Source: a virus
Taxonomy: Duplodnaviria > Heunggongvirae > Uroviricota > Caudoviricetes
Reading direction: 5' to 3' (one strand)
IMG/VR virus record: IMGVR_UViG_2563366943_000021
Length of the DNA stretch: 39,359 bases
A program made the translations under genes and the position numbers. The notes below the pieces were generated by a model. It worked only from the letters and a program-made list of their open reading frames with translations, was not told the origin of the DNA and did no database searches. Shown here one piece after another: positions 1 through 39,359 of the stretch (position 1 is the first letter of the stretch; each line of letters begins with the position of its first letter).

Positions 1-516
1 ATGAAATTTAAAAAATGTCTTCTGCCTGTGGCAATGTTAGCGTCATTCACTCTGGCAGGATGCCAGTCAAATGCTGATGATCATGCCGCCGATGTTTATC
101 AAACCGATCAACTGAATACCAAACAAGAAACTAAAACCGTTAATATTATTTCCATTCTTCCCGCAAAAGTTGCCGTAGACAACTCCCAAAATAAACGAAA
201 CGCACAAGCCTTCGGCGCGCTTATTGGTGCAGTCGCTGGCGGTGTAATCGGCCACAACGTGGGGTCTGGCAGCAATTCCGGAACGACGGCAGGTGCAGTT
301 GGCGGCGGAGCTGTTGGCGCGGCAGCGGGTTCTATGGTGAATGATAAAACCTTAGTGGAAGGTGTTTCTCTAACGTATAAGGAAGGCACCAAAGTGTATA
401 CCTCCACCCAGGTGGGTAAAGAGTGCCAGTTTACGACAGGTTTAGCCGTTGTTATTACCACGACGTATAACGAAACGCGTATTCAGCCAAATACCAAATG
501 TCCTGAAAAGAGCTAA
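1..516 (+). CDS. yfgH: Glycine-zipper outer-membrane lipoprotein, YfgH-like; probably host gene
   Basis: Lipobox LAGC after signal peptide; Gly/Ala-rich GAVAGGVIGH glycine-zipper motif; 171 aa; sits next to a YfgI-like gene and a guaA 3' remnant, matching my recollection of the E. coli yfgH-yfgI-guaA locus. Confidence 0.55.
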   Translation: MKFKKCLLPVAMLASFTLAGCQSNADDHAADVYQTDQLNTKQETKTVNIISILPAKVAVDNSQNKRNAQAFGALIGAVAGGVIGHNVGSGSNSGTTAGAVGGGAVGAAAGSMVNDKTLVEGVSLTYKEGTKVYTSTQVGKECQFTTGLAVVITTTYNETRIQPNTKCPEKS

Positions 517-531
517 TGATCAGGAGGAGTC

Positions 532-1071
532 ATGAAGAAAGTTTTTCTTTGCGCCATCTTAGCCTCCTTAAGCTATCCGGCTATCGCCTCATCATTGCAG
601 GATCAACTCTCTGCTGTCGCAGAAGCGGAACAGCAAGGTAAAAATGAAGAGCAAAGGCAGCATGACGAATGGGTCGCGGAGCGCAACAGGGAAATCCAGC
701 AAGAGAAGCAACGTCGCGCAAACGCCCAGGCCGCGGCTAATAAAAGAGCGGCAACGGCAGCAGCGAATAAGAAAGCTCGTCAGGATAAACTGGACGCCGA
801 AGCCACTGCGGACAAAAAACGCGATCAAAGTTATGAAGATGAGCTACGCAGCTTAGAGATTCAGAAACAAAAACTGGCGCTGGCGAAAGAAGAAGCCCGC
901 GTTAAGCGAGAAAACGAATTTATCGATCAGGAACTGAAGCACAAAGCTGCGCAAACCGATGTGGTGCAATCTGAAGCTGACGCAAACAGAAATATGACTG
1001 AAGGCGGTCGCGATCTGATGAAAAGCGTGGGCAAAGCAGAAGAGAACAAATCGGACAGCTGGTTTAATTAA
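532..1071 (+). CDS. yfgI: Secreted charged coiled-coil protein, YfgI-like; probably host gene
   Basis: Signal peptide MKKVFLCAILASLSYPAIA, then highly charged K/E/Q/A-rich sequence; 179 aa; RBS AGGAGG upstream; symbol rests on recalled synteny only. Confidence 0.5.
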   Translation: MKKVFLCAILASLSYPAIASSLQDQLSAVAEAEQQGKNEEQRQHDEWVAERNREIQQEKQRRANAQAAANKRAATAAANKKARQDKLDAEATADKKRDQSYEDELRSLEIQKQKLALAKEEARVKRENEFIDQELKHKAAQTDVVQSEADANRNMTEGGRDLMKSVGKAEENKSDSWFN

Positions 1072-1110
1072 TCGATGTAAGTAACTTCAAGCCTATAATT
1101 CTTGAAGATA

Positions 1111-1140
1111 AAAAACCCTCTGTAGTAACAGAGGGTTTTG
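1111..1140. terminator. Bidirectional rho-independent terminator between convergent host genes and prophage end
   Basis: Stem AACCCTCTG / CAGAGGGTT with 6-nt loop, A-run on the left and T-run on the right. Confidence 0.55.
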
Positions 1141-1165
1141 TTCATTCATAGTGCAGGGATCAAAA

Positions 1166-1182
1166 TCATTCCCACTCAATTA
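1166..1182 (-). other. Putative attL core: duplicated 3' end of a guaA-like gene (IEWE-stop) at the prophage-host junction
   Basis: Minus strand reads ATT GAG TGG GAA TGA (I E W E stop), the conserved GMP synthase C-terminus, but an in-frame TAA lies immediately upstream, so only the last codons are present. Confidence 0.45.
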
Positions 1183-1209
1183 TTTACGATAACCATAACC
1201 AATTGAGTG
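1174..1209. repeat. Perfect 9-bp inverted repeat CACTCAATT / AATTGAGTG with 18-bp spacer, overlapping the putative att core
   Basis: Direct reading; candidate integrase core-type binding sites. Confidence 0.4.
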
Positions 1210-1290
1210 ATAACATTTTTCCAAATCTCAATTTTTCCCGTACCGTTTTATATACCGTCACCGGAAATCAGTACCATGAAAAATGCCATG

Positions 1291-1773
1291 CTATCTGGTC
1301 AAAGTGTCGTACTGTTTTTCGCAGACTCTTCCGGCTTCGGCTGCCCGGTCAGCATACTCTGCCAGTTGTCTGTTTCTCTCGAGAGATTTGCTGAGCACGT
1401 CGGCAAGCAAAACTCCGGTGTCTGCGGCTGACGACCCAGCGCCGACAATGGCGTTATACTGCCTGAGCTGCTCACGGATGGCAAAGAGTTGTTGCTGCAA
1501 CCGGCCAGCGCTAGCGGCAGCATCAAGAGCATCATTGCGCGCCTGGTCGATCCTCTGCTGAGCTTCACGTTCATTGGTCACTTTCTCCTGTTCGTAGTAC
1601 TGACGAACTTTGTCTTCTTCGGCTTTGCGGTCTTCTTCCGCCTGCGCATACCCGGCATCGTACTGGCGACTGCCGTGTATATTCCAGGCAACAACTCCTG
1701 ATATGACCAGAACAGCAAGCACTGCCACGATAAGAAACTGTTTCCAGTATGCTTTTACGAATGCCCAGATCAT
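1291..1773 (-). CDS. Rz: Rz-like i-spanin
   Basis: N-terminal TM helix then charged coiled-coil periplasmic domain; directly downstream of endolysin with ATGA overlap; embedded Rz1-like ORF in another frame. Confidence 0.7.
1299..1535 (-). CDS. Rz1: Rz1-like o-spanin lipoprotein embedded within Rz
   Basis: Out-of-frame ORF wholly inside Rz; signal peptide with lipobox LAGC; Pro/Ser-rich; start chosen at internal Met ([13 protein letters not shown]), exact start uncertain. Confidence 0.5.
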   Translation of the reverse strand: MMLLMLPLALAGCSNNSLPSVSSSGSITPLSALGRQPQTPEFCLPTCSANLSRETDNWQSMLTGQPKPEESAKNSTTL

Positions 1774-2399
1774 ACCGCCAGCACCTTACTGGCAGTGATG
1801 TACCGCGCTCGCCGGTCGTCGATGCCGTTCCGGCCACCATTGATAATCAGAGTTACACGTGCAATATCGCCGGTATACTTCATGCATCCTTTGCTGGCGA
1901 AGAACCACGCCGCGCTACGAGCCGCATATTCGTCCTGCGCCAGCAGTTCAGGGCTCTCCAGCAGGTCAACCTTCAGACCGTTTCCGCAATCACGATAGTT
2001 ATTCAAACCGGTAATCTGGATAAGTCCGCGCCCTCGGTAATTCCAGCCATCACCAGGGGCATTGTTCCCCATGCGTTTGCTGTATACCAGATTTGCGATT
2101 GCGCGCTGGCGCTCAAGTGGCAATGGTGGTTCACCAGCACGGCGCCCCAGTGCATTAGCCTGCCCCTGAGTGAGACGCCCAGCCCGAACGAAGTTAGCCA
2201 GTCCGCTGACACTGTAGTTGAAATTCTCCTGCAACCTGGTGAAGCCCCCAGACTCATGCCCGGCTTGAGCAATAAACATTGCCTGATCTTCTGCTTTGCT
2301 GATACCAAACTCTTTCATCGCAGAAGTTATATGCGAGAACCAGCGTGCGGCCAGTGCCTCGCTGATACCAGCAGCTCGCTGGAATTGTTTAATCTCCAT
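1770..2399 (-). CDS. Endolysin, glycoside hydrolase family 19 (chitinase-like)
   Basis: Motifs [12 protein letters not shown] and [11 protein letters not shown] typical of GH19 phage endolysins; start moved to internal ATG (MEIKQFQ) at 2399; lies between holin genes and Rz. Confidence 0.85.
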
Positions 2400-2697
2400 G
2401 TTTAGACCTCGATACTTTAAAAATTTGAACGACGTTACCGCGCGTTTTAATAACCGCAGCCAGCATGACAGCGTTGATAATGACCTCAGATAAATCCACA
2501 GCCATTGGCGTACGTAACCAGATTGCATAGGCGACTCGAACAGGAATACTGGCCGCAGCAACAATCAGGAAATAAGCAAGCCATCCTCCCCACCTTCGAT
2601 GTTGAGAGCCGTTACGCCGGAATGTGACAACGCGAATTGCTATGCCAGTGCAAATAACTGCATTGGTGATAAGCAAAAAAAACTCATGCGTTACCAT
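2389..2697 (-). CDS. Small membrane protein of the lysis cassette (second holin or antiholin)
   Basis: 102 aa with predicted TM helices; RBS GGGAGA before ATG; between holin and endolysin. Confidence 0.5.
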
Positions 2698-3088
2698 CGT
2701 CTTTTCTCCCCGGAATTAACTCGCGTGGATTATCGGAACGGTGATAGAGCCATATACCAATACGCACAGCGACAATTGCTGACACGAATGCGCCTGCAGA
2801 GAAAACAATCCCTTTTTCAAAAGAGTCCTGCGTGATGGTAGGGATCAGGCTGGCTATGCCGATAAGAATTGATGCTGCTGGTTTGTAAAAGAGAAGGCCG
2901 CAAAGAAAGCTGAGCATCGACAGGAGCACCCGGCGACGGATGGGGTACTCTACTGCAGAGGTAACAAAAATTACCGCCCCAGCCAAAGCCCCTAAAGCAA
3001 CCTCCGGAGGGACACCTGCAATAACTGCAGCAAGAGAACCAAAACTAAGCAACTGATTTAATTGCTCACTTGTTACTTGAGCAGACAT
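2684..3088 (-). CDS. Holin
   Basis: 134 aa with several hydrophobic helices and charged C-terminus; first gene of lysis cassette; RBS AGGAG. Confidence 0.6.
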   Translation of the reverse strand: MSAQVTSEQLNQLLSFGSLAAVIAGVPPEVALGALAGAVIFVTSAVEYPIRRRVLLSMLSFLCGLLFYKPAASILIGIASLIPTITQDSFEKGIVFSAGAFVSAIVAVRIGIWLYHRSDNPRELIPGRKDDGNA

Positions 3089-3368
3089 ACTTTCTCCTGT
3101 TTACTATCTATAAGCCAGTCAATTATTGATGACTAAACCCGCATAGTAAACCATATATGAATCATTATTGTTCCATATCATATATCTCAATAAAAGTACT
3201 AATGATTTTACAGAACGAGCCAGCAGAGTGGGGGCAGTTGTACAGGAACCATAGACTTAATTTTGTATTTAATAATGCTATGGTGTAATAAACCTGAACA
3301 TGTATTTAAAATACGTACTGATTCATGATAGAATTCAAAGATAACTTTTCACCAACTCCGTTTTTGAT

Positions 3369-3396
3369 ACCCGCAATATTTTGCGGGCTTTTTTTT
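3369..3396 (+). terminator. Plus-strand rho-independent terminator overlapping the tailspike stop codon
   Basis: Stem CCCGCAA / TTGCGGG, loop TATT, followed by 8 T on the plus strand; on the minus strand the hairpin is followed by A-rich sequence. Confidence 0.4.
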
Positions 3397-6300
3397 AACG
3401 TTCTTCCAGAGACTGAACCCGCTCTTTTATCTTATCCATTTCTCTGCGCTGCCATGCTGCCTCGATATAGAATAAGAGATCAGGTCTGACCCCCCATCTA
3501 GATCCTGCTGGCGTTATTTCAACGCGCTCAATGATGTCTTCTATTACCATCACTGGATTATCATCCTCATCAACAATGATGCTCCCGTCATTATCAGTCA
3601 GCGGCATTTCCCTTTGGCCAGTAATGACGTCATCATATACTGCGGGATAATCGTCATAGCAAAGAAAGGCATAGCGGCATGTTGTGCTTTCTTCTTCCAT
3701 GAGTCCGTGAGAAATAAGAACATCACGAAGTTGCTGCGCGATTACACCATGATGTATCCTCGCCCCTTCTTCCCCCTTTATAGCGACAGCGTTCAGCCAT
3801 TTATAAGCGATATACCTGACGTCACCCCAGGCATCCAGCAATGCTTCGTCAGGAGAGACCGGCTCTGTCTTTAATGTTCCGTCACTGGTAACCACAGGAT
3901 TGGAGCCAAGATAAACTGTCGAGAACCTGTTTCCCGGACCACCAAGAGCATTTACATTATCAAGATAAGGTTTAACATCTCCGTTCTCAAAAAGATGTTC
4001 GAGTGCGTTATATACCGCGCGACGTGGAGTACTGCTTCCGGAACCATGCAACGTTATCATTGCACCATCTGCTGAAGACGTTGTTTCACCGCCGCTAACG
4101 ATTAATCTCTGAGCGGTAACATCATCAGACGGTACTTTCTTCGCAATAATGGCGTAATTACCCTCAAGTTTGACTTCCGCGCGAACTTGTCCTGATGTAC
4201 CTGCATGGACAGTCAGTGACTGGACGGCAACATCATCTGTGAAATCAACGGGTACAGGAACCGTCCTCACGCCTGACGTCGACATAAAAGTAGGAAGCGT
4301 TCTGTTAGGAGTGGCTCCGTAGACAAAATCCCTTGAAACAAATTCTTCCTGTTTAATTTTCACCCTGAAACAATACAAATCAGCCGGGTGACCATCGTGA
4401 ACATAAGGATATTTTCTGTTGTTATCCCCTATGCTCCATGGGTTTAGAAAGTCTTCCCCACCGAAAATGTAGTACAGCCAGTTGTCTTTGATACAAACTG
4501 AACCAACACCAACCGCAGAGTTAACTATTCCGCCCTGATAAATCTGATCAGTAACATTAACCCACTCTACATTATCCAGACTCCACTCATTGACGTTAAC
4601 TCTGGTCATAAATGTTCTTGGATAATTTCCTGCATAACGGTTATCAGGTTCTCCTCCTTCCCACTCACCAAATGCGCGCTCACTGCCAAAAATAATCAGC
4701 TCATCGCCAACTTTGGCAAAAGGAAGGTTTGAGTGATGAACATTATTTGGGAAGCGAAGAGAATTCCATGATGTACCTAAATCAGAGCTTCTGTGCAATG
4801 AACTACCGGGTTGAGTACTTAATGTCCCCCTGGTCGTCAGATACAGAATGCCATCATAATATTTTACACATGGCTCAGATGCATTCGCCTCATATTCTAC
4901 AGGTATGCGTCTGCGAACAAAGCTACCAGGAGAACCGAAAGCATCAGAGAAATAGAGTATCCCAAGCTCGCGTGGACCAATATCACCATTATGGTAGCCA
5001 ACAGCAAAACTGTTATCGCTAATCGTCGCAAAACTGTGAATCTCAGTAACAGGAGTGCTTCCGTCAACAAAAGAAGGAATAGTTCCAAGACTGGTTTTTC
5101 TCCATGGTGACGAGTGAAATGATGTGCCAAAACTCCAGTATCTACCCTCGTTATTCTGATCCACATCCTGGGTATTTTGCGTCGTAACTGTAAAGGTATT
5201 TTTATCAATAACAGTAGTCACCGTCATATTCCCGGTAACACCTGTAACACCAGAGTTTGAGAAGTTGACAAAATCACCAGCAAATAATCCGTGATCAGTA
5301 ATGCGAATATAAGCGACTTGCTGATTTGCTGCTTTCGTTATACCACCATAAACGCGAAGGCTGCGACTCATTGGGCGATCCCACAACTCTGCAACCTGCA
5401 GTTTATTTCCTCTCACGGTCCGCGTCTCAATTACAGCAAAAAGGCGATTTCTGACAACCCCCATACTCATGCAGTGATAGTTAACTGTGGGATAGTTTTC
5501 ATGTAAATCTGTAAGCCATTCCGGCGTTGTCCAGGTCTTCCCGTCATCTCCTGAGCGAACCCATGCAACATGGAGGTTATTTACACCATGGCGGTCTCCA
5601 GCCATAAAAGGCGCATAGATGACATTGTCATATACAAACGTTTTATCCTGCGTCCAGGCGTTGTACCACGGTGTATCTGTAATTTTAAATAACTCTCCCT
5701 GGATAAAATCTTCAGAAGCATAAAAAAGAGGCTGGCCCGGTATTCTCTCAAATAAAAAACGAGCATTTTTAAATCGACTGACATCCGGAAGAGTTGATAC
5801 TTTAAAAGTAAGCCCTAATCCGTCAATTTTATAACCTGGAGATGAGGCTTCAAGGCACGCGCTTATTGCAGTGGAATCGTCATTTATACCATCACCAACA
5901 GCTCCAAAATCTTTGGGGCTAATAGCATCACGCATTTTATCCTGGAACGTTCGGTACACAGCCCCAGAACCATACTGAATAAACCAACCAAAACCACCAA
6001 CAACTCCGGCGATTGCAGCATCGACATAATTACGCATTGAGCGATTATTTACAGCGTCCTGCTCAAATGATGGATCTGCAAGGTTAGAAATTTTGTTTTG
6101 CTTTGCATCGTAATATTTTGCAAGCAAAGATGGTTTCATCAATGCACGTCTGAACCACCCAAAACATTGCTGGATCAGCATCGTCAGGTAGTCAAAGGCA
6201 TCTTCATGCACTTCGGGGAAAAATTTTCCCTGATTGCGAAGGTCTGTGTCCTGCACTACATCAAGCACACGATCTATCGTAATTCGCCATCCAGTAGCAA

Positions 6301-6514
6301 GCGGAGACGGAAGAACCACAGAACCGCCACTATAAGTGCCCGCCCCAGTTACCGTATAACCGGTATCCAGGACCAATTCTGTTACGTTCCCGTTCAGGTC
6401 AGACACCTGAACAACCAGGTCTGATTTTCTGAAAATTCGAAAAGTATACGGAAACGATGTCGTAACGCCGTTACCGGTGTATTCGTTGTGGTCAACTTCG
6501 GTTGAGACCGTCAT
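3395..6514 (-). CDS. Tailspike: N-terminal particle-binding domain, Asp-box sialidase-like beta-propeller, C-terminal intramolecular chaperone domain
   Basis: 1039 aa; two Asp-boxes SGDDGKTW (5531-5554) and SSDLGTSW (4766-4789); C-terminal about 150 aa resembles the auto-cleaving chaperone domain of endosialidases; N-terminus resembles epsilon15-type tailspike anchors (recalled). Confidence 0.8.
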   Translation of the reverse strand: MTVSTEVDHNEYTGNGVTTSFPYTFRIFRKSDLVVQVSDLNGNVTELVLDTGYTVTGAGTYSGGSVVLPSPLATGWRITIDRVLDVVQDTDLRNQGKFFPEVHEDAFDYLTMLIQQCFGWFRRALMKPSLLAKYYDAKQNKISNLADPSFEQDAVNNRSMRNYVDAAIAGVVGGFGWFIQYGSGAVYRTFQDKMRDAISPKDFGAVGDGINDDSTAISACLEASSPGYKIDGLGLTFKVSTLPDVSRFKNARFLFERIPGQPLFYASEDFIQGELFKITDTPWYNAWTQDKTFVYDNVIYAPFMAGDRHGVNNLHVAWVRSGDDGKTWTTPEWLTDLHENYPTVNYHCMSMGVVRNRLFAVIETRTVRGNKLQVAELWDRPMSRSLRVYGGITKAANQQVAYIRITDHGLFAGDFVNFSNSGVTGVTGNMTVTTVIDKNTFTVTTQNTQDVDQNNEGRYWSFGTSFHSSPWRKTSLGTIPSFVDGSTPVTEIHSFATISDNSFAVGYHNGDIGPRELGILYFSDAFGSPGSFVRRRIPVEYEANASEPCVKYYDGILYLTTRGTLSTQPGSSLHRSSDLGTSWNSLRFPNNVHHSNLPFAKVGDELIIFGSERAFGEWEGGEPDNRYAGNYPRTFMTRVNVNEWSLDNVEWVNVTDQIYQGGIVNSAVGVGSVCIKDNWLYYIFGGEDFLNPWSIGDNNRKYPYVHDGHPADLYCFRVKIKQEEFVSRDFVYGATPNRTLPTFMSTSGVRTVPVPVDFTDDVAVQSLTVHAGTSGQVRAEVKLEGNYAIIAKKVPSDDVTAQRLIVSGGETTSSADGAMITLHGSGSSTPRRAVYNALEHLFENGDVKPYLDNVNALGGPGNRFSTVYLGSNPVVTSDGTLKTEPVSPDEALLDAWGDVRYIAYKWLNAVAIKGEEGARIHHGVIAQQLRDVLISHGLMEEESTTCRYAFLCYDDYPAVYDDVITGQREMPLTDNDGSIIVDEDDNPVMVIEDIIERVEITPAGSRWGVRPDLLFYIEAAWQRREMDKIKERVQSLEER

Positions 6515-6618
6515 GTTAAATCTCCAGATAGTCGCAGCACCCGTTGCGCCGCATATCTGGTTATTCTATTACCTGAAAAACCATATATGGATAAAAAGAC
6601 TATAAATACCAATAGATA

Positions 6619-6633
6619 TTACCTTTCGGGTAA
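6619..6633. promoter_or_regulatory. Operator site TTACC-TTTCG-GGTAA
   Basis: Perfect 5+5 inverted repeat with 5-bp spacer; intergenic, upstream of LexA box and small antirepressor-domain gene. Confidence 0.6.
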
Positions 6634-6670
6634 TTTGCAAAACGTGCTGGATAGCAAACAAATTATTTGT

Positions 6671-6690
6671 TACTGTATAAACATACAGTT
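6671..6690 (+). promoter_or_regulatory. LexA (SOS) box
   Basis: TACTGTATAAACATACAGTT matches CTGT-N8-ACAG with AT-rich spacer; 20 bp upstream of ORF start at 6710. Confidence 0.65.
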
Positions 6691-6709
6691 ATTGCATGGA
6701 GAAGATAAG

Positions 6710-6967
6710 ATGCAGCAGTATCACTATCCACTGGAAGACGGATTTACCGAAAGGATTCACACGCCGGGAGGCGTCAGGTCACTGGTGGAGGGATCGCACT
6801 TGATGAAATTACTCCGGGATCTCGATAAGGATGGATTTAATGTCGATGGCCCACTTGCCGAACTGACTGCACTGATTAACTACGTCACCAGCTCACAGAT
6901 GTCTATGCAGGATCTGCAAACACATCTCGACTATTGTGCCGAACAATTACGAAAACAAACCAGATAA
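6710..6967 (+). CDS. Small protein paralogous to the C-terminal domain of the antirepressor; candidate SOS-induced antirepressor
   Basis: 85 aa from ATG at 6710 with RBS GGAGAAG; aligns with C-terminus of the 7283-7993 product (HTPGGV/HSPSGV ... AELT); upstream part of the tracked ORF overlaps the operator and LexA box. Confidence 0.55.
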   Translation: MQQYHYPLEDGFTERIHTPGGVRSLVEGSHLMKLLRDLDKDGFNVDGPLAELTALINYVTSSQMSMQDLQTHLDYCAEQLRKQTR

Positions 6968-6970
6968 GGT

Positions 6971-6999
6971 TTGCAATTACCAAATGGAGTGCTTATATT
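6971..6999 (+). promoter_or_regulatory. Sigma70-like promoter (-35 TTGCAA, 17 bp, -10 TATATT) abutting operator
   Basis: Hexamers read directly; the TTACC half-site starts at the last base of the -10. Confidence 0.5.
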
Positions 7000-7013
7000 T
7001 ACCTTTGCGGTAA
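6999..7013. promoter_or_regulatory. Operator site TTACC-TTTGC-GGTAA
   Basis: Perfect inverted repeat; overlaps predicted transcription start of the ant leader. Confidence 0.6.
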
Positions 7014-7103
7014 ATTTACATCGCACTCCTCTTGTGCCATAGTAATCGGGCACTGGCAAAATCCAGTGCCGGGATTGGCGTCCCGAGTTACTAAGTGGCG
7101 CAT

Positions 7104-7127
7104 ACCACGCCAGACGTGGTTTTTTTA
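7104..7127 (+). terminator. Rho-independent terminator or attenuator in the ant leader
   Basis: Stem ACCACG / CGTGGT, loop CCAGA, followed by 7 T; about 100 nt downstream of the promoter and 155 nt upstream of ant. Confidence 0.45.
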
Positions 7128-7282
7128 TGCGTTAAGCACAGCTATATCCGAATTATGGTGGGCTGGGCAGGGGTCCGAAAGGACGCCGGTACCACTTAGG
7201 CCGGTACGCCAACCTTGTCCAGTTCACCACCAGTAATTGGCGTTGCGGTGGTGATTAAAATCACTAAGTGGAGATAACCACC

Positions 7283-7993
7283 ATGGCTAATGCTCAAACT
7301 GCCATCTTCAAATTTGAATCTGTAAACCCTATCCGTTCCATCATTATCGATGGCCAACCATGGTTTGTAGCCCAAGACGTTTGTAGTGCGCTGCGTATCC
7401 AAAACGTCACCCAAGCACTTGAAAAACTGGATGATGATGAAAGGTCTATGTTCAACATAGGGCATGAACATCGTGCAATTTTTGACAGCCGAGTAAAAGA
7501 GATCAACATCATCTCCGAGTCAGGCCTCTACACACTGATCCTCCGCTGCCGCGACGCAGTGACACCAGGCACTATCCCCTACCGCTTTCGTAAATGGGTT
7601 ACAGGTGAGGTTCTTCCTCAGATCCGCCGCACCGGAAGCTACATTAAAAACTCGCTCCCGCAGGAAGAACGCATAAAGATGGTTGCCGACCAGGTAGCCA
7701 ACGCCACGGCGTCAGCAGTAATGCAGGCGATGAAGATAGAGAACAAAACCTACAGCGCCCCACTGAAGCCCGGCTACCGCAGCCTGATTCACTCGCCGTC
7801 TGGTGTTCTCGGCCTGACGGAGAACTCACTGCTGATGAATTTGCTGAACCAGTTGCAGGAAGACGGGCACGATGTATCGGGCGCGGCGGCGGAGCTGACC
7901 ACCATGTTCTGCTACATCGTTGGTGTGAGCAAATGCCTGCGTGATATCCAGACGCACGCGGAGTACATCAACGACAAGGCAGGATTCTTCTGA
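7283..7993 (+). CDS. Antirepressor (Bro-N / AntA-like N-terminal domain)
   Basis: N-terminal IFKFE...DGQPWFVAQDVCSAL matches Bro-N/AntA signature; start set at ATG 7283 with RBS GGAG (tracked start is GTG 7268). Confidence 0.7.
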   Translation: MANAQTAIFKFESVNPIRSIIIDGQPWFVAQDVCSALRIQNVTQALEKLDDDERSMFNIGHEHRAIFDSRVKEINIISESGLYTLILRCRDAVTPGTIPYRFRKWVTGEVLPQIRRTGSYIKNSLPQEERIKMVADQVANATASAVMQAMKIENKTYSAPLKPGYRSLIHSPSGVLGLTENSLLMNLLNQLQEDGHDVSGAAAELTTMFCYIVGVSKCLRDIQTHAEYINDKAGFF

Positions 7994-8038
7994 CAGAACG
8001 GCGGCACAGGGATGTGCCTTTAAATAATTCTGTACAGA

Positions 8039-8067
8039 TTGCAGACTGGGGGTGAATAGCGTACTAT
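8039..8067 (+). promoter_or_regulatory. Sigma70-like promoter (-35 TTGCAG, 17 bp, -10 TACTAT) abutting operator
   Basis: Same geometry as promoter at 6971-6999. Confidence 0.5.
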
Positions 8068-8081
8068 TACCTTAAAGGTAA
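8067..8081. promoter_or_regulatory. Operator site TTACC-TTAAA-GGTAA
   Basis: Perfect inverted repeat immediately upstream of RBS AGGAGG. Confidence 0.6.
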
Positions 8082-8093
8082 AGGAGGCGCGAT

Positions 8094-8261
8094 ATGACAG
8101 CGTTGAAAAATCGTACTCAGCACAATGAACAAGCCAAGCAATGCTGGGATGTCATTGGAAAAGTTATGCTTGGCCGCGCAAGCAAAGAGCGCGACAAGGA
8201 TATGGTTTACCAGACAGGAACATCTTTCAGCGACTTCAAGGCGGCATTTCGCTCCAAATAG
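8094..8261 (+). CDS. Hypothetical small protein (55 aa), first gene of a two-gene cassette
   Basis: Absent from ORF track (below 60 aa); strong RBS AGGAGG 6 nt before ATG; GC-normal; operator-controlled promoter upstream. Confidence 0.45.
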   Translation: MTALKNRTQHNEQAKQCWDVIGKVMLGRASKERDKDMVYQTGTSFSDFKAAFRSK

Positions 8262-8281
8262 AAGCACATCAGGAGTTTTCC

Positions 8282-8722
8282 TTGAAGTTTAACATTAGAA
8301 TATCTAATAGTTTTCTACATGGGGAAAGCAACACCCCTTTCGCTGTAGACGGACCTTTCCTTACTGATGATGAAATAAAAATCATACAAAGTTTTTTAGA
8401 GGATGTTGCCAATGGAAGGGCGCTTGTTGGAAAAAACAAGCCCTCGTGGGTTGATGATAACCATGATAAAATTCCCGGCTCAGACAATTATGAGCAAGAG
8501 AATTATTGGCATTATCATTGTGGGCCAACATGGTATCCAAACACATTTAAGAATTATACCATTAACTTAAATTTCAACCCTGGCGGAAGGCATTCTAATG
8601 AATGCATTCATTATGCAAAAAATGATAATGAAATTGTCATTGTTGGATTTTCAAGAGAACACATACCTTTCCTTTCATCAGATGGAAACAACAATCCGCT
8701 TTTTAATGATGAAGAAGAATAG
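8282..8722 (+). CDS. Hypothetical AT-rich protein (about 146 aa), second gene of cassette
   Basis: AT-rich relative to neighbours; putative TTG start with RBS AGGAG 6 nt upstream, in frame with tracked ORF 8141-8722; no family recognised. Confidence 0.45.
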   Translation: MKFNIRISNSFLHGESNTPFAVDGPFLTDDEIKIIQSFLEDVANGRALVGKNKPSWVDDNHDKIPGSDNYEQENYWHYHCGPTWYPNTFKNYTINLNFNPGGRHSNECIHYAKNDNEIVIVGFSREHIPFLSSDGNNNPLFNDEEE

Positions 8723-13890: not shown

Positions 13891-16400
13891 TGCGGAATAT
13901 CTCCGGAGAATCTCTGACGCTTCTGTGTCAGATTAAGAACAACGGGAGAACCATCATCTTTCAGCAGATAACCAGTACCAAGTTTCACCAAGTACTGACT
14001 ATCGCCGTAACTTTGCAAACCATACTGACCAGGCGGTGTTTTTATCCCGGAGCCGACAACTTGTTCATTCCAAGCCTGATTAACCTGCTTATCGAATTGC
14101 TCTGCAGACATTCCCCACGGCAAAAGGACATTCCCCATTCCGTTATAGTCATGCACGCCACCTGTAGCTACGTTAACAGCCTGTTTCCAGACATCATTGT
14201 CAATTTCGCCTGATACCACGCCTTTTTTCGCCATCACACCAGCGTAATAATCCTTTGCGATCTCGTATGCCATTGATGCGCCCTGAGCGTCACCAGCAAA
14301 TGCATCCTTCACCATGTCAGAAAACTCAAGGCGAAGATCAGCATCTTTAGGCATCGGAATACCTTTCGCATCATCAGTACCTTTACGAGCCGCCGCGCCA
14401 GCAAGAATTGTCTGCGCAGCGGTTTCAGGAGACACGGAAACATCCGGATTAAACCAGTTTTTTTCTGCCAAAATACCACCAGGCTTATCCATCAGTATCC
14501 CGGCAACGGCAGCAGATGGAGCGTTGGCACTGATCTGCTGTAGTGCTGACATATACACCTGCCCACCACCAGTGCTCTGCCTGATGGTATCGAGATATGC
14601 TGCCTGTTGGGAAACTGGAGCATCACGAAAGAAAACACCGATCTGATTGGCCTCGTCTTTGGAAAAGAACGTCAGTGGAGTGCCATATGACTTAGCAAGG
14701 TCACTGACCTGAGCGGCACGCAAGGCAACGCTCTGTCCAAAGTTATCCTTATTGCTCATGTCGATAGGCTTTGCCTGTCCGGAGGCAAGAGAGAACTGCA
14801 CAGGATCCGACTGCCGCTGCTTTATCACCTGATTTGCAGCCGAAACAACGTTGTCATAAAGAGTTGCGCGTGCCGCATACCCCTCCCCTGTATCACCAGT
14901 ATCCGGGCGTAATTGCTCAACATATGCTGTAATGCTGCTTGTCGGCATGTTGCGGAAAGAGCCTATATACTGTCCGGCGATCTGCGTATTCTTAAACTCG
15001 GTATATCGCAGGTTTCCTTCTCTGACTCCATAAGCTGCAATAAAATCATCCTCACCAGGTGGGTTAGGAAATTCAATGCCACGCATATACGCAGCCGTCG
15101 CATCGCGAACCCGGCTGTCGAGCATCGTTTTATATTCAGCCTGCTGTTGTCTGGCTAGTGCATCAGTCTGTCGCAACACGCTGGCCTGATCTGATTCACT
15201 TAAAGCATCGAACCAGGCTACACCGGTATAACGTTTATTTTTTGTCGGTAGCTGAGAAAGCCCCAGCGCAGCACTAACACCTGCAGTTAACTGCTGATCA
15301 CTGTATGGCTGGCTACCGTTTTCATGATGGATAATGGCTGCACAAAGCGCCTTCAGGGTATCAGGATTTGATGCATCGAGAGGCTCATCAGCAGAAACGC
15401 CAAGTTGTTCGCACACTGCTTTGATATACGACATAGTGTCATTTTTATCAGTAGGCGGTGCCCAGCGATTAATTATCTCGCTGACGGTATCAATACCCTG
15501 CCGCTGATACGACATCAGGTTCCGCCCTAATGCACGAATACCGTGTTCAGGGGTTTCGAATTTGGCAAAGCGACCATCATCACCAGTCTGCCCAACCCAC
15601 GGATTAGTTTTGCTGTATTCAAGATTGCCGGGGTTATTGTTGCGTATACCGCGGGTACGATCGGAAGAGCCACTATCTGCTACAGCACGGCGAGAACCAG
15701 CAGCAGTATCGCTTAACTCGCCGTTTTGCTGTCTTACCTGAAGATAGTTTGCTCCAATAGCATTTTGAGCAGTTGCTTTTGCTGTTGCTTCTTTAAACTC
15801 GATTTTCTTGGCCTGGATTTGCTCGTCACTCCAGCCATGTGCAATGCCGTAATCCTCAATTTGCTGGAAAGTTTGCTTATTAGCCAATACGTATGCGGCG
15901 TTGTCGCCATACAATGCTGCGGCATTTTTACCATTGTTCAGCAGCGTAGCCTGAAACTGGCCTTCTTCGTAGGCATTTATTTGCCCTATCTCGTGCCGCC
16001 CGGCCTGCGTAGTGAACTGAATGCGCTGCTGCTGCGCCTGCTGCATGAAAGCATTACGAGCCTGTTCATCCGGCAGCGACATAGCCAGTTGTTCGACCTG
16101 AGCATCAAACTGCTGCGTATACTCCTGACCTTTTCCAATAGCATTTTTCCCTTTCAGGTTAAGCAAACCTGTTTCAGGGTTATTCAGCAGATCGCTGCTT
16201 ATCTGGCTTAAGCTAAGAGAAGCATCCTGAGCCATAGCAACATTCGCACGCTGTTTTGCCTGCGCAATAATACCTGCATATTGCTCTGCAACATCGCCAA
16301 GTACATCACCGACATTTGGTGTCTGAAACGATGAGAATCCCTGCGTCGAAATCCCTCTGCTCTGAACCTGACGGCCCGATGTTGTTGGTACAACTGGCAT
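13887..16400 (-). CDS. Internal virion protein (837 aa)
   Basis: Position in structural operon, translationally coupled to neighbours. Confidence 0.55.
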   Translation of the reverse strand: MPVVPTTSGRQVQSRGISTQGFSSFQTPNVGDVLGDVAEQYAGIIAQAKQRANVAMAQDASLSLSQISSDLLNNPETGLLNLKGKNAIGKGQEYTQQFDAQVEQLAMSLPDEQARNAFMQQAQQQRIQFTTQAGRHEIGQINAYEEGQFQATLLNNGKNAAALYGDNAAYVLANKQTFQQIEDYGIAHGWSDEQIQAKKIEFKEATAKATAQNAIGANYLQVRQQNGELSDTAAGSRRAVADSGSSDRTRGIRNNNPGNLEYSKTNPWVGQTGDDGRFAKFETPEHGIRALGRNLMSYQRQGIDTVSEIINRWAPPTDKNDTMSYIKAVCEQLGVSADEPLDASNPDTLKALCAAIIHHENGSQPYSDQQLTAGVSAALGLSQLPTKNKRYTGVAWFDALSESDQASVLRQTDALARQQQAEYKTMLDSRVRDATAAYMRGIEFPNPPGEDDFIAAYGVREGNLRYTEFKNTQIAGQYIGSFRNMPTSSITAYVEQLRPDTGDTGEGYAARATLYDNVVSAANQVIKQRQSDPVQFSLASGQAKPIDMSNKDNFGQSVALRAAQVSDLAKSYGTPLTFFSKDEANQIGVFFRDAPVSQQAAYLDTIRQSTGGGQVYMSALQQISANAPSAAVAGILMDKPGGILAEKNWFNPDVSVSPETAAQTILAGAAARKGTDDAKGIPMPKDADLRLEFSDMVKDAFAGDAQGASMAYEIAKDYYAGVMAKKGVVSGEIDNDVWKQAVNVATGGVHDYNGMGNVLLPWGMSAEQFDKQVNQAWNEQVVGSGIKTPPGQYGLQSYGDSQYLVKLGTGYLLKDDGSPVVLNLTQKRQRFSGDIPQ

Positions 16401-16412
16401 CTTATTATCCCC

Positions 16413-16952
16413 TTATCGACCGGTTGGAGTGCCAACAGCAGCAGAAATCGGCGCAGCCTTCTGAGAGAACGGGCTCCACGTTCCGCCGCCCATCTGGTAT
16501 GCACCGTATGCTTTTAGTGGTGCCGTTAACAAAGTGCTGGTCATCGATGATTTAGCAGCCGACTGAGCAGCAGCCCCCTGTGCCTGAGCATTCATTCCCT
16601 GAACCTGATACCCATATGCCTCACGCTGAGCATTATTCACTGTCGTTAACGCATCAAGAGTGCCGAACTGAGCATTATCCGCAAAAACGTCAAGAGCTGT
16701 TCCGCTACTTAATTCCGCACCGGTAGCCCCCATAGTGGCCGCCGCAGTGCCTGAGCGTTGACGCATTTCACGACGACGCTGATCCGCTTCAATATTCCCA
16801 CGATTGATTGAATCCTGTGCCTGAGCTTCAGCAATTTCAGCATTCCGATCAGCTATGGCTGACTGGTATTTTGCCTGCTTGCTCTGGCTGTACATTGACG
16901 CGGCTGTGGATGCCACTGTGACGGCAACCAAAGCGATGGCTGGGTTACACAT
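16413..16952 (-). CDS. Internal virion protein (179 aa)
   Basis: Position downstream of tail tubular genes; Ala/Gln-rich. Confidence 0.5.
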   Translation of the reverse strand: MCNPAIALVAVTVASTAASMYSQSKQAKYQSAIADRNAEIAEAQAQDSINRGNIEADQRRREMRQRSGTAAATMGATGAELSSGTALDVFADNAQFGTLDALTTVNNAQREAYGYQVQGMNAQAQGAAAQSAAKSSMTSTLLTAPLKAYGAYQMGGGTWSPFSQKAAPISAAVGTPTGR

Positions 16953-26020: not shown

Positions 26021-26097
26021 GTGGCATTAGCTCAGCTGGACAGAGCAACCGCCTTCTAAGCGGTTGGTCGCAGGTTCGAATCCTGCATGCCACGCCA
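26021..26097 (+). tRNA. tRNA-Arg (anticodon UCU)
   Basis: Hand-folded cloverleaf: 7-bp acceptor stem GTGGCAT/ATGCCAC, D-arm GCTC..GAGC, anticodon stem ACCGC/GCGGT with loop CTTCTAA (anticodon TCT), T-arm GCAGGTTCGAATCCTGC, discriminator G, encoded CCA. Confidence 0.8.
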
Positions 26098-26284: not shown

Positions 26285-26295
26285 AAGGTGAGATC

Positions 26296-26715
26296 ATGAA
26301 AACAATTGATATGTTGGCTAAGTATCTAAATGAATGGCCATTAAAATATTCTCGTATCGTTCAGGCTGAAGACTGCGTTTTTTATGGCGTTTTTGCTGGT
26401 AATGAAATGCATTACGAAGTAATTCAGAGTGAGGGACTGGCCGGGTTAACTCTTAGCGAAGACCATGGTACTAGCGTTACGTTCCATGACTGGATAACAG
26501 CACAACGTTCTGAAATGGAAAAAGGCGATGTGTTTGATATTTCTCGCGCTGTTTACGCTAAAGCAAAAAGTGATAATGATTACATGAGCGAACACTTATA
26601 CAACATGAAGTTACAATGCCTGCATGCGGCGCTTATTCAGAATGGGCACTTCGATAAAACAAGTGCCATCAATATTGCGGAAGCCATCAACGCTGGATTT
26701 GATGCCATTAAGTAA
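26296..26715 (+). CDS. Hypothetical cytoplasmic protein (139 aa), moron antisense to the late operon
   Basis: RBS AAGGTGAG; no TM or signal peptide; no family recognised. Confidence 0.55.
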   Translation: MKTIDMLAKYLNEWPLKYSRIVQAEDCVFYGVFAGNEMHYEVIQSEGLAGLTLSEDHGTSVTFHDWITAQRSEMEKGDVFDISRAVYAKAKSDNDYMSEHLYNMKLQCLHAALIQNGHFDKTSAINIAEAINAGFDAIK

Positions 26716-29673: not shown

Positions 29674-30578
29674 CACTTCACCTCCTGCAGCGGTTCGGGT
29701 AGCGGCATCCAGAACAAGGCGTTCCCTAACCACGATAAAGTGCCGTCGCTCAACTCCACGTATTCCCCTTGTACCTGTCCTGCCATATACTCGCCGTGCT
29801 TTGAATAAATTAAAATCCAATCATCTTGAGGGGGCATTCGCTCACTACAGCTTATCCAACCATCCGGAGTTACCGGAACTTGCGGAATGGCTGTCTGCTC
29901 TCGAACGTCATTAGGCGCTATAGGTTCTGCTGCCAACTGACTGGCATATTTGTTAATGGTAACGATAAGCTCTTGCTCAGCCTCATCCAGACAATCACCG
30001 ATACCTCGCCTGTCACCGTCAAAATCATCGAAATCGGCACGAATCTTGGCAACCTTCAAGATTGCGGACAACACCTCACTAGGAATTACCGGATAGTTGG
30101 TTGACGTTTCCGCGATTTCCCGAAAATTATTGGTTGACGAATTCTTGTTTTCCCGAAAGTTTCCGGACTGAAGCATGGCGGCGCGGCAGGCGTTCCAGCC
30201 TCTTACCTCTGCAATAGCGGCAACAGCATCAACCGCGTACATGCTAAGAGGATTAGGCATTGGTTTTTCTTCCGGTACTACTGGAACGGGTGGAGCGGCG
30301 AATAGATGTCCTCCAAAGTCAGGAAGCTCTCCAATGGCCTGTACGAACTTTTGTTTGCCTACGTCAATTCCTAATGGGTAGTGAGCTATAATTTTTGCCA
30401 CTGGCTCTGCCTCCAGTGATGCCAGCGCATTAGCACGCACCAATTGCACTTCCAGTTGCGTTGCCAAATCGCTGATCAGCTTTGCCACACTGCGCATATC
30501 AACGGCACCACATTCTGCTTTCAGTTCCGAAGCCATCTCATGCCCGGCGGCAACTAACCCTTTGATATTACTTTCCAT
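29673..30578 (-). CDS. Ead/Ea22-like protein with C-terminal DUF551-like domain
   Basis: C-terminal Trp-rich segment (DGWISCSERMPP...WILIY...W) resembles DUF551 of lambda Ea22-type proteins; RBS GAGGG. Confidence 0.5.
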   Translation of the reverse strand: MESNIKGLVAAGHEMASELKAECGAVDMRSVAKLISDLATQLEVQLVRANALASLEAEPVAKIIAHYPLGIDVGKQKFVQAIGELPDFGGHLFAAPPVPVVPEEKPMPNPLSMYAVDAVAAIAEVRGWNACRAAMLQSGNFRENKNSSTNNFREIAETSTNYPVIPSEVLSAILKVAKIRADFDDFDGDRRGIGDCLDEAEQELIVTINKYASQLAAEPIAPNDVREQTAIPQVPVTPDGWISCSERMPPQDDWILIYSKHGEYMAGQVQGEYVELSDGTLSWLGNALFWMPLPEPLQEVK

Positions 30579-31884: not shown

Positions 31885-32692
31885 CCCACACCTCATCTAT
31901 CCAGTCAGTGTTATGCCAGTCAAGGCTCTTTCTGACTTCACCTGATTTCTGTCTACAGAACTGGATGCGCCTTGCCAGCTTCTGCTCCCACTGTGCCTGA
32001 TGGTATGCCTTACCCTCAGCCATCCAGTAAATTCTGAACTCTGCAAGTTCCTGTGCCGTTGGCAGACTGTCCAGGTAGATTCCCTGCAATGAGCTTTTCC
32101 GAAGAAAGTCATCTGATGGCTGCCATTGTTCATGCATGACAAATTTACCTAATTGCCCTGGCCCACCAGGAGGAACAAAGTTATTCATCACGGCGTTGTT
32201 TGCGCCGGGGTCATGAGGAACAGAATCCCCGGTTTTTGTCCTGCTCTCCCTCTCTTGGTTAAATGACTGGTTATATGACTGGTTCTGGATCCCGTTTTTG
32301 GGATCATTCAACATCCCGTTTTTGGGATCATTCAACATCCCGTTTTTGGGTATATTCCCGTTTTCGGTAACATTACCGTTTTCGGGTTCATTGCCCCCCT
32401 CCCGGTTGCCTTTAATGTTCCCGTTTTTGGTTATATTAAGAGAGAAAACCCGCACTCTTTTTGTCGCTCCCTTTCTCTCTCCGGTATCTGAAATAAGCCC
32501 CATTTTCATGAGCGATATAAGCCCGGCCTGCACGGTTTTTTTATTCAGGCAAGTGTCTTTAACGAGGCGTTCTATGCTGGGGTAGCAGAGGTTATATTCA
32601 TCGGCTCTGTCAGCCATCGAGAGCAGTATGAGCTTTAATGATGAGCTACCTGGATCTGTCTCCCAGGCCCAATCTGTTGCATGTCTGCTCAT
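31859..32692 (-). CDS. Replication initiator, lambda O-like, with N-terminal wHTH and internal repeat region
   Basis: N-terminal wHTH-like segment; central NG-rich tandem repeats that coincide with DNA iterons; immediately upstream of P-like gene. Confidence 0.65.
   Translation of the reverse strand: MSRHATDWAWETDPGSSSLKLILLSMADRADEYNLCYPSIERLVKDTCLNKKTVQAGLISLMKMGLISDTGERKGATKRVRVFSLNITKNGNIKGNREGGNEPENGNVTENGNIPKNGMLNDPKNGMLNDPKNGIQNQSYNQSFNQERESRTKTGDSVPHDPGANNAVMNNFVPPGGPGQLGKFVMHEQWQPSDDFLRKSSLQGIYLDSLPTAQELAEFRIYWMAEGKAYHQAQWEQKLARRIQFCRQKSGEVRKSLDWHNTDWIDEVWDEINSRTS
32289..32432. repeat. Iteron array (putative origin of replication) inside the initiator gene
   Basis: CCCGTTTTTGGG three times at 24-bp period (32291, 32315, 32339) plus degenerate copies near 32357, 32376 and 32420. 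Confidence 0.6.
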
Positions 32693-32707
32693 GATTAATC
32701 TCCGCTA

Positions 32708-32908
32708 TCAGCTTGAGTGTTGTGGGGAGGAATTAATCATGATCTGCTTAATCTCTGCCCTGATGCGACGGTTTGATTCCATGGTGCACTCAACACAGTG
32801 TCCGTTGTAAACCCAGCGTTCACTGTCATGTCCATGCTTACATGGTTTTCCGGTGTAGTAGCGTTTAAGTCCGCGCTTTGCGGCATCAATACGTGTAATG
32901 ATTTCCAT
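32708..32908 (-). CDS. Small putative zinc-binding protein
   Basis: Cys/His cluster CKHGH...HCVEC; start uncertain (candidates 32908, 32944, 32971), 32908 chosen for RBS AGGG. Confidence 0.4.
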   Translation of the reverse strand: MEIITRIDAAKRGLKRYYTGKPCKHGHDSERWVYNGHCVECTMESNRRIRAEIKQIMINSSPQHSS

Positions 32909-32988
32909 GGTAAGCCCTGCTATTAGTATTGGGGTTACGGTCATTTTGTGCTGACACAAAAAAAAGATCAACCAGATTTGGTTTTTTA

Positions 32989-35532: not shown

Positions 35533-35541
35533 GGAGAAAAA

Positions 35542-36613: not shown

Positions 36614-36862
36614 ATGAAAGGTGCATTAGGTAAGAAAGAACTCCTGGCGGTGGTGCCACTGTCATGGAGCACTATCGACCGTATGGAGCGCGCAGGGGAA
36701 TTTCCTAAACGCTGGTATATCACCGATAAACGCTGCGCATGGAACCGTGATGAAGTTGAGCGTTGGCTTGATGAACGTCAGGCAGCAAGCCCGGCAGAGT
36801 TCCAGGGTAAAAAGCCTCCTGTTCAGCAACGTGTATATCGTCCCGTGAGCAACGCTGCATGA
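36614..36862 (+). CDS. AlpA-family small HTH regulator / excisionase-like protein
   Basis: LLAVVPLSWSTIDRMERAGEFPKRWYITDKRCAWNRDEVERWLDER resembles AlpA/Xis MerR-type HTH; near integrase. Confidence 0.65.
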   Translation: MKGALGKKELLAVVPLSWSTIDRMERAGEFPKRWYITDKRCAWNRDEVERWLDERQAASPAEFQGKKPPVQQRVYRPVSNAA

Positions 36863-38108: not shown

Positions 38109-39359
38109 TTATTCCCCCGCCATCCACTTCTCAAACTTCGACGGGGAGAACGGAATCAGATCCGTATGCTCCCCGTCAATCCATGAATCAATCATATCGG
38201 CCCACTGCTGCAACATGTAGGCGCGCTGTCTGGCGTATTCCGCTTTGTTATATACGGCGCGCACACCTTTCTGCTCATGTGCCAGAGCCTTTTCAATCCA
38301 GTCTGAAGGATAACCAGCCTCATGCAACAACGTACTGGCTGTACGGCGCATATCGTGTACGGTGAAGCCCTGAATATGCTCACCATCTTCATTTATTATT
38401 TTCACCGTTCTGTCGATCAGAGAGTTCAGCGCGGCATTAGATAATGGCTTCCGGAAATTGTAACGACCAGGAACCAGATATTCACTTCCACCAGCGCACA
38501 TCTGCAACCCAACCAATATATCCTGTGCCTGTTTAGGCAGGTAAATAACGTGCGCCCGGCTTCCCTTCATGCGGTCTGAAGGAATTGTCCATGTCCATTT
38601 TTTAAAATCTATTTCATCCCACGTTGCATTGGTGAATTCGCCTTTACGAACCATAGTGATAAGCACCAGCTTTAAAGCCATTTTCATAGTGCCCATAGCA
38701 CCAATGGCATCCAGCGTGCGGAAGAACAGGCCAATTTCTTCTGGTGTCAGTGTTCGCTCTCGTGGTTTAAATATGGCGATAGACGAAGGTTTAATGTCAG
38801 CCGCAGGATTAAACAAACCATGACCACGGTCATTGGCGTGACGGTATACGCTGCTGATGATCTCCCTGGCCTGTACTGCTGTTGCCCGACCACCGCGTTC
38901 GACAATCCGGTCACACAAATCACGAACCATCGATGTGGTAATTTCAGCCATCATTTTGTTACCAAGAACAGGAAGTATGTCACGGTCGATCACCGCCTGC
39001 TTCATTGCGCGGGTACTGTCAGCCAGGATGACGTGTTTCATATAACTGTCGGTATGTACCGCAAACGTCTCGGCACCACGAATCTTTTTGATACCGTCAC
39101 GTTTAGCCGCAGCCGGTGACTGGCCTGCTTTAAGCAGCTTCTTTGCAGCAATCAGTTCTTCTCGCGCTTCTGCCAGGCTGATACCGTCACGCCCATACTG
39201 CCCGATTACCAGTGTTTCGCGGCGACCGTTGATACGGTAGTCATAGCGAAACGAGACCGTGCCTGACGTAAGCACAGCTACATACAGCCCGTCACGATCG
39301 GAGACCTTGTACAGTTTGTCCTGCGGCTTGAGGTTTTTTAATTTTGTATCGGTAAGCAC
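38109..39359 (-). CDS. int: Tyrosine integrase, P4-type; N-terminus truncated by window edge
   Basis: N-terminal LTDTKLKNLKP arm-binding signature; C-terminal catalytic domain with R...HxxR...Y-type residues (HDMRRTASTLL ... VRAVY); ORF runs off the window at 39359. Confidence 0.9.
   Translation of the reverse strand: MLTDTKLKNLKPQDKLYKVSDRDGLYVAVLTSGTVSFRYDYRINGRRETLVIGQYGRDGISLAEAREELIAAKKLLKAGQSPAAAKRDGIKKIRGAETFAVHTDSYMKHVILADSTRAMKQAVIDRDILPVLGNKMMAEITTSMVRDLCDRIVERGGRATAVQAREIISSVYRHANDRGHGLFNPAADIKPSSIAIFKPRERTLTPEEIGLFFRTLDAIGAMGTMKMALKLVLITMVRKGEFTNATWDEIDFKKWTWTIPSDRMKGSRAHVIYLPKQAQDILVGLQMCAGGSEYLVPGRYNFRKPLSNAALNSLIDRTVKIINEDGEHIQGFTVHDMRRTASTLLHEAGYPSDWIEKALAHEQKGVRAVYNKAEYARQRAYMLQQWADMIDSWIDGEHTDLIPFSPSKFEKWMAGE

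Follow-up and report, generated by a model that had tools for sequence, protein, structure and literature searches.

The junction studied here, in a 39,359-nt stretch of DNA (the window), is an ordinary, already published attachment site of the epsilon15/phiV10 type, located in the last codons of guaA. By far the best explanation for it, which we hold to be nearly certain, is that a P4-type tyrosine integrase carried out recombination between a 17-bp core in attP and the same 17 bp at the guaA end. Since this core is identical to the published att core of phage ZX5, the finding is a correct rediscovery. Our analysis adds to it a putative, sequence-based model for the crossover and the binding sites, describes a host-like terminator in the arm of the phage, and demotes a 9-bp inverted repeat from crossover site to possible IHF site. 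Coordinates of the features are collected in Table 1.

The guaA junction and its 17-bp core

Window positions 900-1500 were used as a megablast query against 5,426 complete E. coli genomes. Matches were found in 5,412 of them, most covering only positions 900-1180, over yfgI and the guaA 3' end; the whole query was matched in 363 genomes (6.7%), which therefore carry the junction. When phage records were searched with window 1100-4000, all matches began at 1164. They came from 20 Uetakevirus and related records; vB_EcoP_ZX5 ranked first (99.5%), and phiV10, O157 typing phages, epsilon15 and further Uetakevirus came next. Taken together, the host and phage matches place the end of host identity at 1180 and the start of phage identity at 1164, with an overlap of 17 bp. 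An earlier note on this region had proposed a prophage-host junction at this place and had called for an alignment with unoccupied E. coli; that alignment indeed breaks at 1180 in most genomes and the attP of free phages aligns from 1164, so that the junction can be considered as established. Positions 1-1163 belong to the chromosome of E. coli and contain yfgH, yfgI and a bidirectional terminator; the sequence from 1181 onward is a Uetakevirus prophage. The identity of the two upstream genes, which the same note suggested to be yfgH and yfgI, is confirmed by the K-12 annotation and by Pfam.

We compared four sequences at the att site: the window junction, the integrase-side junction of E. coli CE10, the attP of ZX5 and the unoccupied site of K-12. 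The only sequence common to attB, attP and both junctions is AATCATTCCCACTCAAT. To the left of this core the window is identical to K-12, and to the right it follows ZX5 for 56 bp before the first mismatch. The other junction, in CE10, is identical to ZX5 on its left (288 bp exact) and to K-12 guaA on its right (213 bp exact). On the non-homologous sides, exact identity extends over just 0-1 bp. Such clean breakpoints on both sides of the core are the textbook signature of site-specific integration. The 17-mer occurs only once in the 39,359 nt of the window (chance expectation about 5e-6).

The core contains the last four guaA codons and the stop (IEWE*, minus strand) plus 2 nt. It had been predicted to be duplicated from the guaA 3' end, and its presence in attB, attP and both junctions bears this out. 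The minus strand of 1166-1201 translates as WLWLS*IIEWE*, with an in-frame TAA at 1184-1186 preceding the IEWE* remnant, in agreement with the original reading of IEWE-stop at 1166-1180 with an in-frame stop just upstream.

Window 1164-1180 is the exact reverse complement of attgagtgggaatgatt, reported as the attP/attB core of ZX5 at the guaA 3' end (PMC9782041). The attB, attL and attR sites of this phage have been confirmed by PCR and Sanger sequencing; its lysogens undergo spontaneous induction, with excision shown via attL, attR and attB PCR (PMC9782041). In a passage of the same paper, which cites Kropinski 2007 and Perry 2009, the same core is said to be proved for phiV10 and epsilon15 (PMC9782041). 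The present comparison fixes one boundary of the prophage at 1164-1180. The other is predicted to lie some 190 bp outside the window, which gives a core-to-core length of about 38.4 kb. The comparison indicates that guaA would be left undisrupted by the phage insertion, and is otherwise of little importance beyond annotation.

Table 1. Features of the window at the host junction and at the integrase end (strand: +, - or. for none).
Feature	Position	Strand	Evidence
yfgH, host outer-membrane lipoprotein, glycine-zipper	1..516	+	K-12 colinear annotation; Pfam glycine zipper 2TM 4.8e-08
yfgI, host gene, DUF5384 family	532..1071	+	K-12 annotation; Pfam DUF5384 4.1e-62
Host bidirectional intrinsic terminator of yfgI and guaA, 12-bp stem AAAACCCTCTGT, 4-nt loop	1112..1139	.	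perfect inverted repeat
att core AATCATTCCCACTCAAT	1164..1180	.	four-way comparison with exact breakpoints
Putative core-type integrase half-sites ATCATT (1165-1170) and AATTAT (1178-1183, reverse complement ATAATT)	1165..1183	.	predicted
Duplicated guaA end, four codons and stop (IEWE*); gene not intact	1166..1180	-	translation
Putative overlap (strand-exchange) region CCCACTC, GAGTGGG in guaA sense, 7 bp	1171..1177	.	predicted
Perfect 9-bp inverted repeat, CACTCAATT (1173-1181) and AATTGAGTG (1201-1209), 19-nt spacer	1173..1209	.	
Candidate P'-arm arm-type integrase sites TACCGTTTTATATACCGTCACCGG, including ATACCGTCAC at 1252-1261	1241..1264	+	conservation; epsilon15 annotation
First prophage gene, Rz-like spanin (DUF2514), last of the lysis cassette	1291..1773	-	Pfam 1.7e-43; phage annotations
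AlpA-family small DNA-binding protein, 82 aa, candidate excisionase/directionality factor	36614..36862	+	Pfam Phage_AlpA 3.1e-05
P4-type tyrosine integrase, 416 aa; start codon at the last base of the window	38109..39359	-	Pfam
Three ATACCGTCAC copies within the int coding sequence	38838-38847; 39091-39100; 39181-39190	-; +; +	exact match

The prophage and its integrase end

The integrase possesses a domain for arm-DNA binding at its N terminus (Arm-DNA-bind_3, PF13356, 4e-20), a central core-binding domain (Phage_int_M, PF22022, 5.4e-12) and a C-terminal catalytic domain (Phage_integrase, PF00589, 5.9e-19), all above the curated cutoffs, and can be assigned to the P4 type. As candidate locations of the catalytic residues (R, K, HxxR, H/W, Y), the stretches HDMRR, LAHE and AVYNKAEY are visible and conserved in the integrase pairwise alignment. 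The AlpA-family small protein (Table 1) matches Phage_AlpA with 24.2 bits, for a cutoff of 21, and in ZX5 the homologue bears the annotation AlpA family phage regulatory protein; it could play a role in excision.

Since the start codon of int closes the window, the second core falls beyond it and is seen just in close relatives. The closest complete genome, CE10 (NC_017646.1), carries the second core and an intact guaA 190 bp beyond int. A protein identical to the integrase is recorded in thousands of assemblies. We read eight long contigs with the identical integrase, and in all eight a 525-aa guaA is found 192 bp away, with the core at the guaA terminus, 190 bp from int. The intact guaA that had been expected beyond the integrase is thus present in every relative examined, together with the second core 190 bp past int. 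By analogy, the sequence past 39359 is predicted to consist of a P arm of about 190 bp that contains ATACCGTCACC, TGACGGTAT and a stem-loop, AACCCTCTGTAAAAACAGAGGGTT, and then of AATCATTCCCACTCAAT and the intact guaA. None of the complete E. coli genomes searched covers the window in full. In CE10, indels are present and an IS3-family element interrupts yfgI (CE10 locus 1-1071), whereas yfgI is intact in the window, which must therefore come from a different strain. The closest relatives were found in K1 strains: CE10 is O7:K1 and the host of ZX5 is O87:H52:K1.

Two further genes of the prophage can be mentioned. The tailspike (1039 aa, window 3395-6514, minus strand) corresponds to a protein for which CE10 has the annotation endosialidase catalytic beta-propeller protein. 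A tRNA-Arg gene (anticodon TCT, window 26021-26097, plus strand) is located inside the prophage, with the portal region on one side of it and the terminase region on the other.

The element is probably a K1-capsule-specific temperate podovirus (Uetakevirus), and this likely K1-specific type would be present at guaA in some 6.7% of the complete genomes of E. coli. Islands of the GIsul2 type also use guaA, so that a decayed prophage remnant or a non-phage guaA island, instead of a functional phage, could be envisaged. We regard this as very improbable: the phage lysis cassette is present from 1181 onward, the tailspike is complete, the virion, terminase, replication, repressor, recombination and int modules are complete as well and colinear with those of the infectious phage ZX5, and no disrupted genes were noticed in the window. 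A GIsul2-type island as the owner of the junction was rejected on account of the same lysis-cassette flank.

Putative crossover region and the 9-bp inverted repeat

The sequence ATCATT-CCCACTC-AATTAT (1165-1183) appears to be a better candidate for the crossover than the 9-bp inverted repeat. It forms an imperfect ATCATT dyad around a 7-bp spacer, the geometry expected of core-type sites. In guaA sense, the corresponding sites read ACCATT-GAGTGGG-AATGAT in attB, ATAATT-GAGTGGG-AATGAT in the phage attP and ATCATC-GAGTGGG-AATGAT in an island of E. coli D72.

Three independent constraints on the position of the crossover were combined: the core of GIsul2, the repeat of the D72 island and a Klebsiella lysogen. 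The guaA terminus used by the phage is also the target of GIsul2 islands, whose core is GAGTGGGA (PMC9376610). The D72 genome (NZ_CP035312.1) harbours an 18.5-kb GIsul2-like island at the guaA site, with the direct repeat GAGTGGGAATGATTT (repeat 6262-6277 and segment 26760-28269 in the extracted D72 loci). The native Klebsiella guaA ends with TTATTCCC... and a TAA stop (TTATTCCCACTCAAT), and the int-side junction of a K. pneumoniae ATCC 13883 lysogen reads ATCATTCCC..., from which it follows that the exchange took place 3' of the Klebsiella polymorphism on the plus strand. The same junction indicates that the guaA stop was changed from TAA to TGA and that the usable identity was only 13 bp. 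CCCACTC falls inside the identity common to the phage core, GAGTGGGAATGATTT, GAGTGGGA and the Klebsiella constraint. Together, the three constraints would place strand exchange within about ATTCCCACTC.

We aligned the attP sites of eight Uetakevirus whose hosts are Escherichia, Salmonella, Enterobacter and Klebsiella. A 23-bp block, ATCATTCCCACTCAATTATTTAC, is invariant in all eight sites, over the four host genera, and reaches 7 bp past the host identity, which lends support to the crossover model. It is followed by a partly conserved C.TAA...ATTGA.T, a variable spacer and an invariant TACCGTTTTATATACCGTCAC.

A perfect 9-bp inverted repeat had been described as flanking the junction and as a pair of candidate integrase sites. 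The repeat is real and perfect, and its second arm was correctly placed at 1201-1209, but its first arm is at 1173-1181 and not at 1174-1182. The description of its surroundings did not stand: host identity ends within the first arm (1180/1181) and the second lies wholly in phage DNA, so the repeat does not flank the junction. It can be extended to 14-nt arms at 86% complementarity. Perfect 9-bp inverted repeats with a loop of 3-30 nt were present in 150 of 5,000 dinucleotide shuffles of 1111-1290 (3%), which makes the repeat mildly unusual, and nine such repeats exist in the whole window (background 0.23 per kb). Its second arm is perfect in three of the eight attP sites, matches at 8/9 positions in four others and at 6/9 positions in epsilon15.

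What the repeat does, if anything, can be read in several ways. Its arms could be sites for IHF or another bending protein next to the core, as H' is in lambda, with the first arm overlapping the C' half-site; we favour this reading tentatively, at somewhat less than even chances. Each arm differs from the IHF consensus WATCAANNNNTTR at a single position, and 1174-1212 contains a cluster of three one-mismatch hits, at 1174-1186 (+), 1196-1208 (-) and 1200-1212 (-). In the epsilon15 record both equivalent arms lie under predicted IHF sites and the integrase sites correspond to a different motif, ATACCGTCAC. The positions C.TAA...ATTGA.T are invariant in the eight attP sites, and the succession of core, IHF-like site and arm-type repeats resembles the order found in the lambda P' arm. 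Against this, the consensus is weak, the IHF annotation of epsilon15 is itself a prediction, and no enrichment in IHF-consensus hits was observed window-wide, where 36 hits compare with 40 expected from shuffles.

Almost as likely, the repeat does nothing by itself: guaA coding would dictate its first arm, and the second would be similar by coincidence or as a remnant of host DNA that was captured. Its significance is marginal, comparable repeats are found elsewhere in the window and the second arm differs among relatives. Moreover, the core-like TGAATAG(A/G)AATGA, present twice, and the host-like terminator in the phage arms suggest captured host DNA. However, ATTGA.T is partly conserved over four host genera while the adjacent columns vary.

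By comparison, a function of the two arms as the core-type integrase-binding pair, with strand exchange between them, is scarcely credible. One arm does lie within the core, the repeat is mildly non-random, and the region, as single-stranded DNA, folds better than shuffles (z about -4.7 to -5.0). But tyrosine recombinases require identity where strands are exchanged, and the centre of the repeat (about 1191) is in phage-only DNA, beyond the end of the 17 bp common to attP and attB at 1180. The spacer of 19 nt far exceeds the 6-8 bp overlap regions of this class of recombinases. Finally, attB reads ...CACTCAATggtagctggcgg..., without AATTGAGTG, and the second arm varies among attP sites. The proposal that the arms are a pair of integrase crossover sites is thus not retained.

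We also rejected the reading of the repeat as a hairpin in RNA or DNA, such as a lysis-operon terminator: it lacks a T-run, its AT-rich fold is weak (-6 to -9 kcal/mol), and genuine terminators are located nearby, at 1112-1139 in the lysogen and in the P-arm stem-loop in the free phage.

Attachment arms, terminators and related systems

On the P' side, the 21-bp TACCGTTTTATATACCGTCAC (window 1241-1261) is invariant in all eight attP sites. It ends with ATACCGTCAC, a motif to which the GenBank record of epsilon15 assigns an integrase protein_bind feature; arm-type binding of the integrase at this motif can be proposed for the window. The window contains four exact copies of ATACCGTCAC, all at the att/int end. 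Of the three copies in int, the two on the plus strand correspond to protein_bind features within the epsilon15 int gene, and these copies may be extended arm sites or autoregulatory sites.

The host terminator (Table 1), also found in the K-12 attB, has T-runs on both strands and faces the phage lysis operon in the lysogen. Its DNA fold is -12.6 and -12.0 kcal/mol on the two strands (z about -6.5 for both). A terminator in the phage P arm (ZX5 attP sequence 2430-2456) is identical to host 1111-1137 at 25 of 27 positions, a similarity reached in 0 of 2,000 shuffles. A scan of one genome per species showed that the same stem-loop directly follows the stop codon of guaA in many genera of Enterobacterales (Klebsiella, Citrobacter, Serratia, Buttiauxella and Escherichia). 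Its loop is AAAA in the phage and most genera, and AGTA in Escherichia. As the phage arm carries a copy of the guaA terminator, integration swaps the guaA end and terminator for phage-borne equivalents. The presence of such a near-native terminator in the phage suggests that the host flank of guaA was captured ancestrally.

Two conserved direct repeats, TGAATAGAAATGA and TGAATAGGAATGA, which resemble the reverse complement of the core, TGAGTGGGAATGA, were observed in the P arm (ZX5 attP 2405-2417 and 2468-2480). Besides the core and the terminator identical at 25/27 positions, attP contains sequences that partially repeat the guaA terminus in inverted orientation, three in all: the P arm has two copies of TGAATAG(A/G)AATGA, and the P' arm has AATTGAGTG. 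One could imagine that the Uetakevirus attP is largely a captured and rearranged guaA 3' flank, whose core-like copies act as extra integrase or decoy sites setting directionality, instead of being arm or IHF sites of the classical kind. This is a speculative and improbable scenario; we know of no prior description of it.

The following course of integration can be proposed. The integrase recombined the attP core with the same 17 bp at the guaA end, with strand exchange presumably occurring within CCCACTC (1171-1177), between ATCATT-like core-type half-sites. Bending by IHF at the IHF-like sites that form the 9-bp inverted repeat might assist the reaction. Since the phage core brings the last four codons and the stop, guaA would remain intact at the int-side junction, just outside the window, where the P arm would provide it with a substitute terminator. 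At the window-side junction, a 5-codon remnant is left beside the original host terminator, which would now end the phage lysis operon. The AlpA-family protein may help excision.

Among known phages, ZX5 (MW722083) is the closest system. Its 17-bp core is identical, its P' arm and lysis end align without gaps at 98.8% over window 1164-7258, and its integrase and endosialidase tailspike are of the same type as those of the window; it shares with CE10 an identical attP-to-int region (288 bp). In total, 85% of the prophage part aligns with ZX5 at 94.5-99.2%, with all modules present, and about 15% has no ZX5 counterpart, the genome being a mosaic. At window 34637-36560, a YqaJ exonuclease and a 340-aa RecT are found instead of the RecE-like protein and shorter RecT of ZX5; the other gaps are at 7259-7496, 8020-8709, 16289-16947, 26294-26712, 29713-30420 and 31929-32965. 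The Uetakevirus epsilon15 and phiV10 exhibit the same core, the same int-attP-lysis order, the ATACCGTCAC motif and the P-arm terminator, with attP regions 83% and 97% identical, respectively. They differ from the window in their tailspikes and host serotypes, and in epsilon15 the 9-bp repeat has a degenerate second arm.

The D72 island encodes an integrase 54% identical to that of the phage and, like the prophage, has a small helix-turn-helix gene by int (annotated only as a transcriptional regulator). Judging from this identity and the common guaA site, phages and islands share a clade of guaA-targeting integrases. In contrast to the prophage, the GIsul2 family consists of non-phage mobilisable islands with repA, trbJ/L, toxin-antitoxin and defence cargo (in D72: int, repA, traJ, trbJ/L, HigA, PIN and DUF262), and in D72 the repeat is shifted (GAGTGGGAATGATTT) and the arms are different. 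The comparison with GIsul2 narrows the probable strand-exchange region for the whole clade, which could aid the engineering of these integrases or the tracking of sul2 island mobility.

Finally, the predicted layout is reminiscent of lambda attP (C-O-C', H', P'1-P'3), with a core, an IHF-like site and tandem arm-type sites distal to the crossover, all of them predicted from sequence in our case; both integrases have a separate arm-binding domain. Unlike in lambda, the integrase belongs to the P4-type subfamily, the target lies within a protein-coding gene and int is located on the opposite arm.
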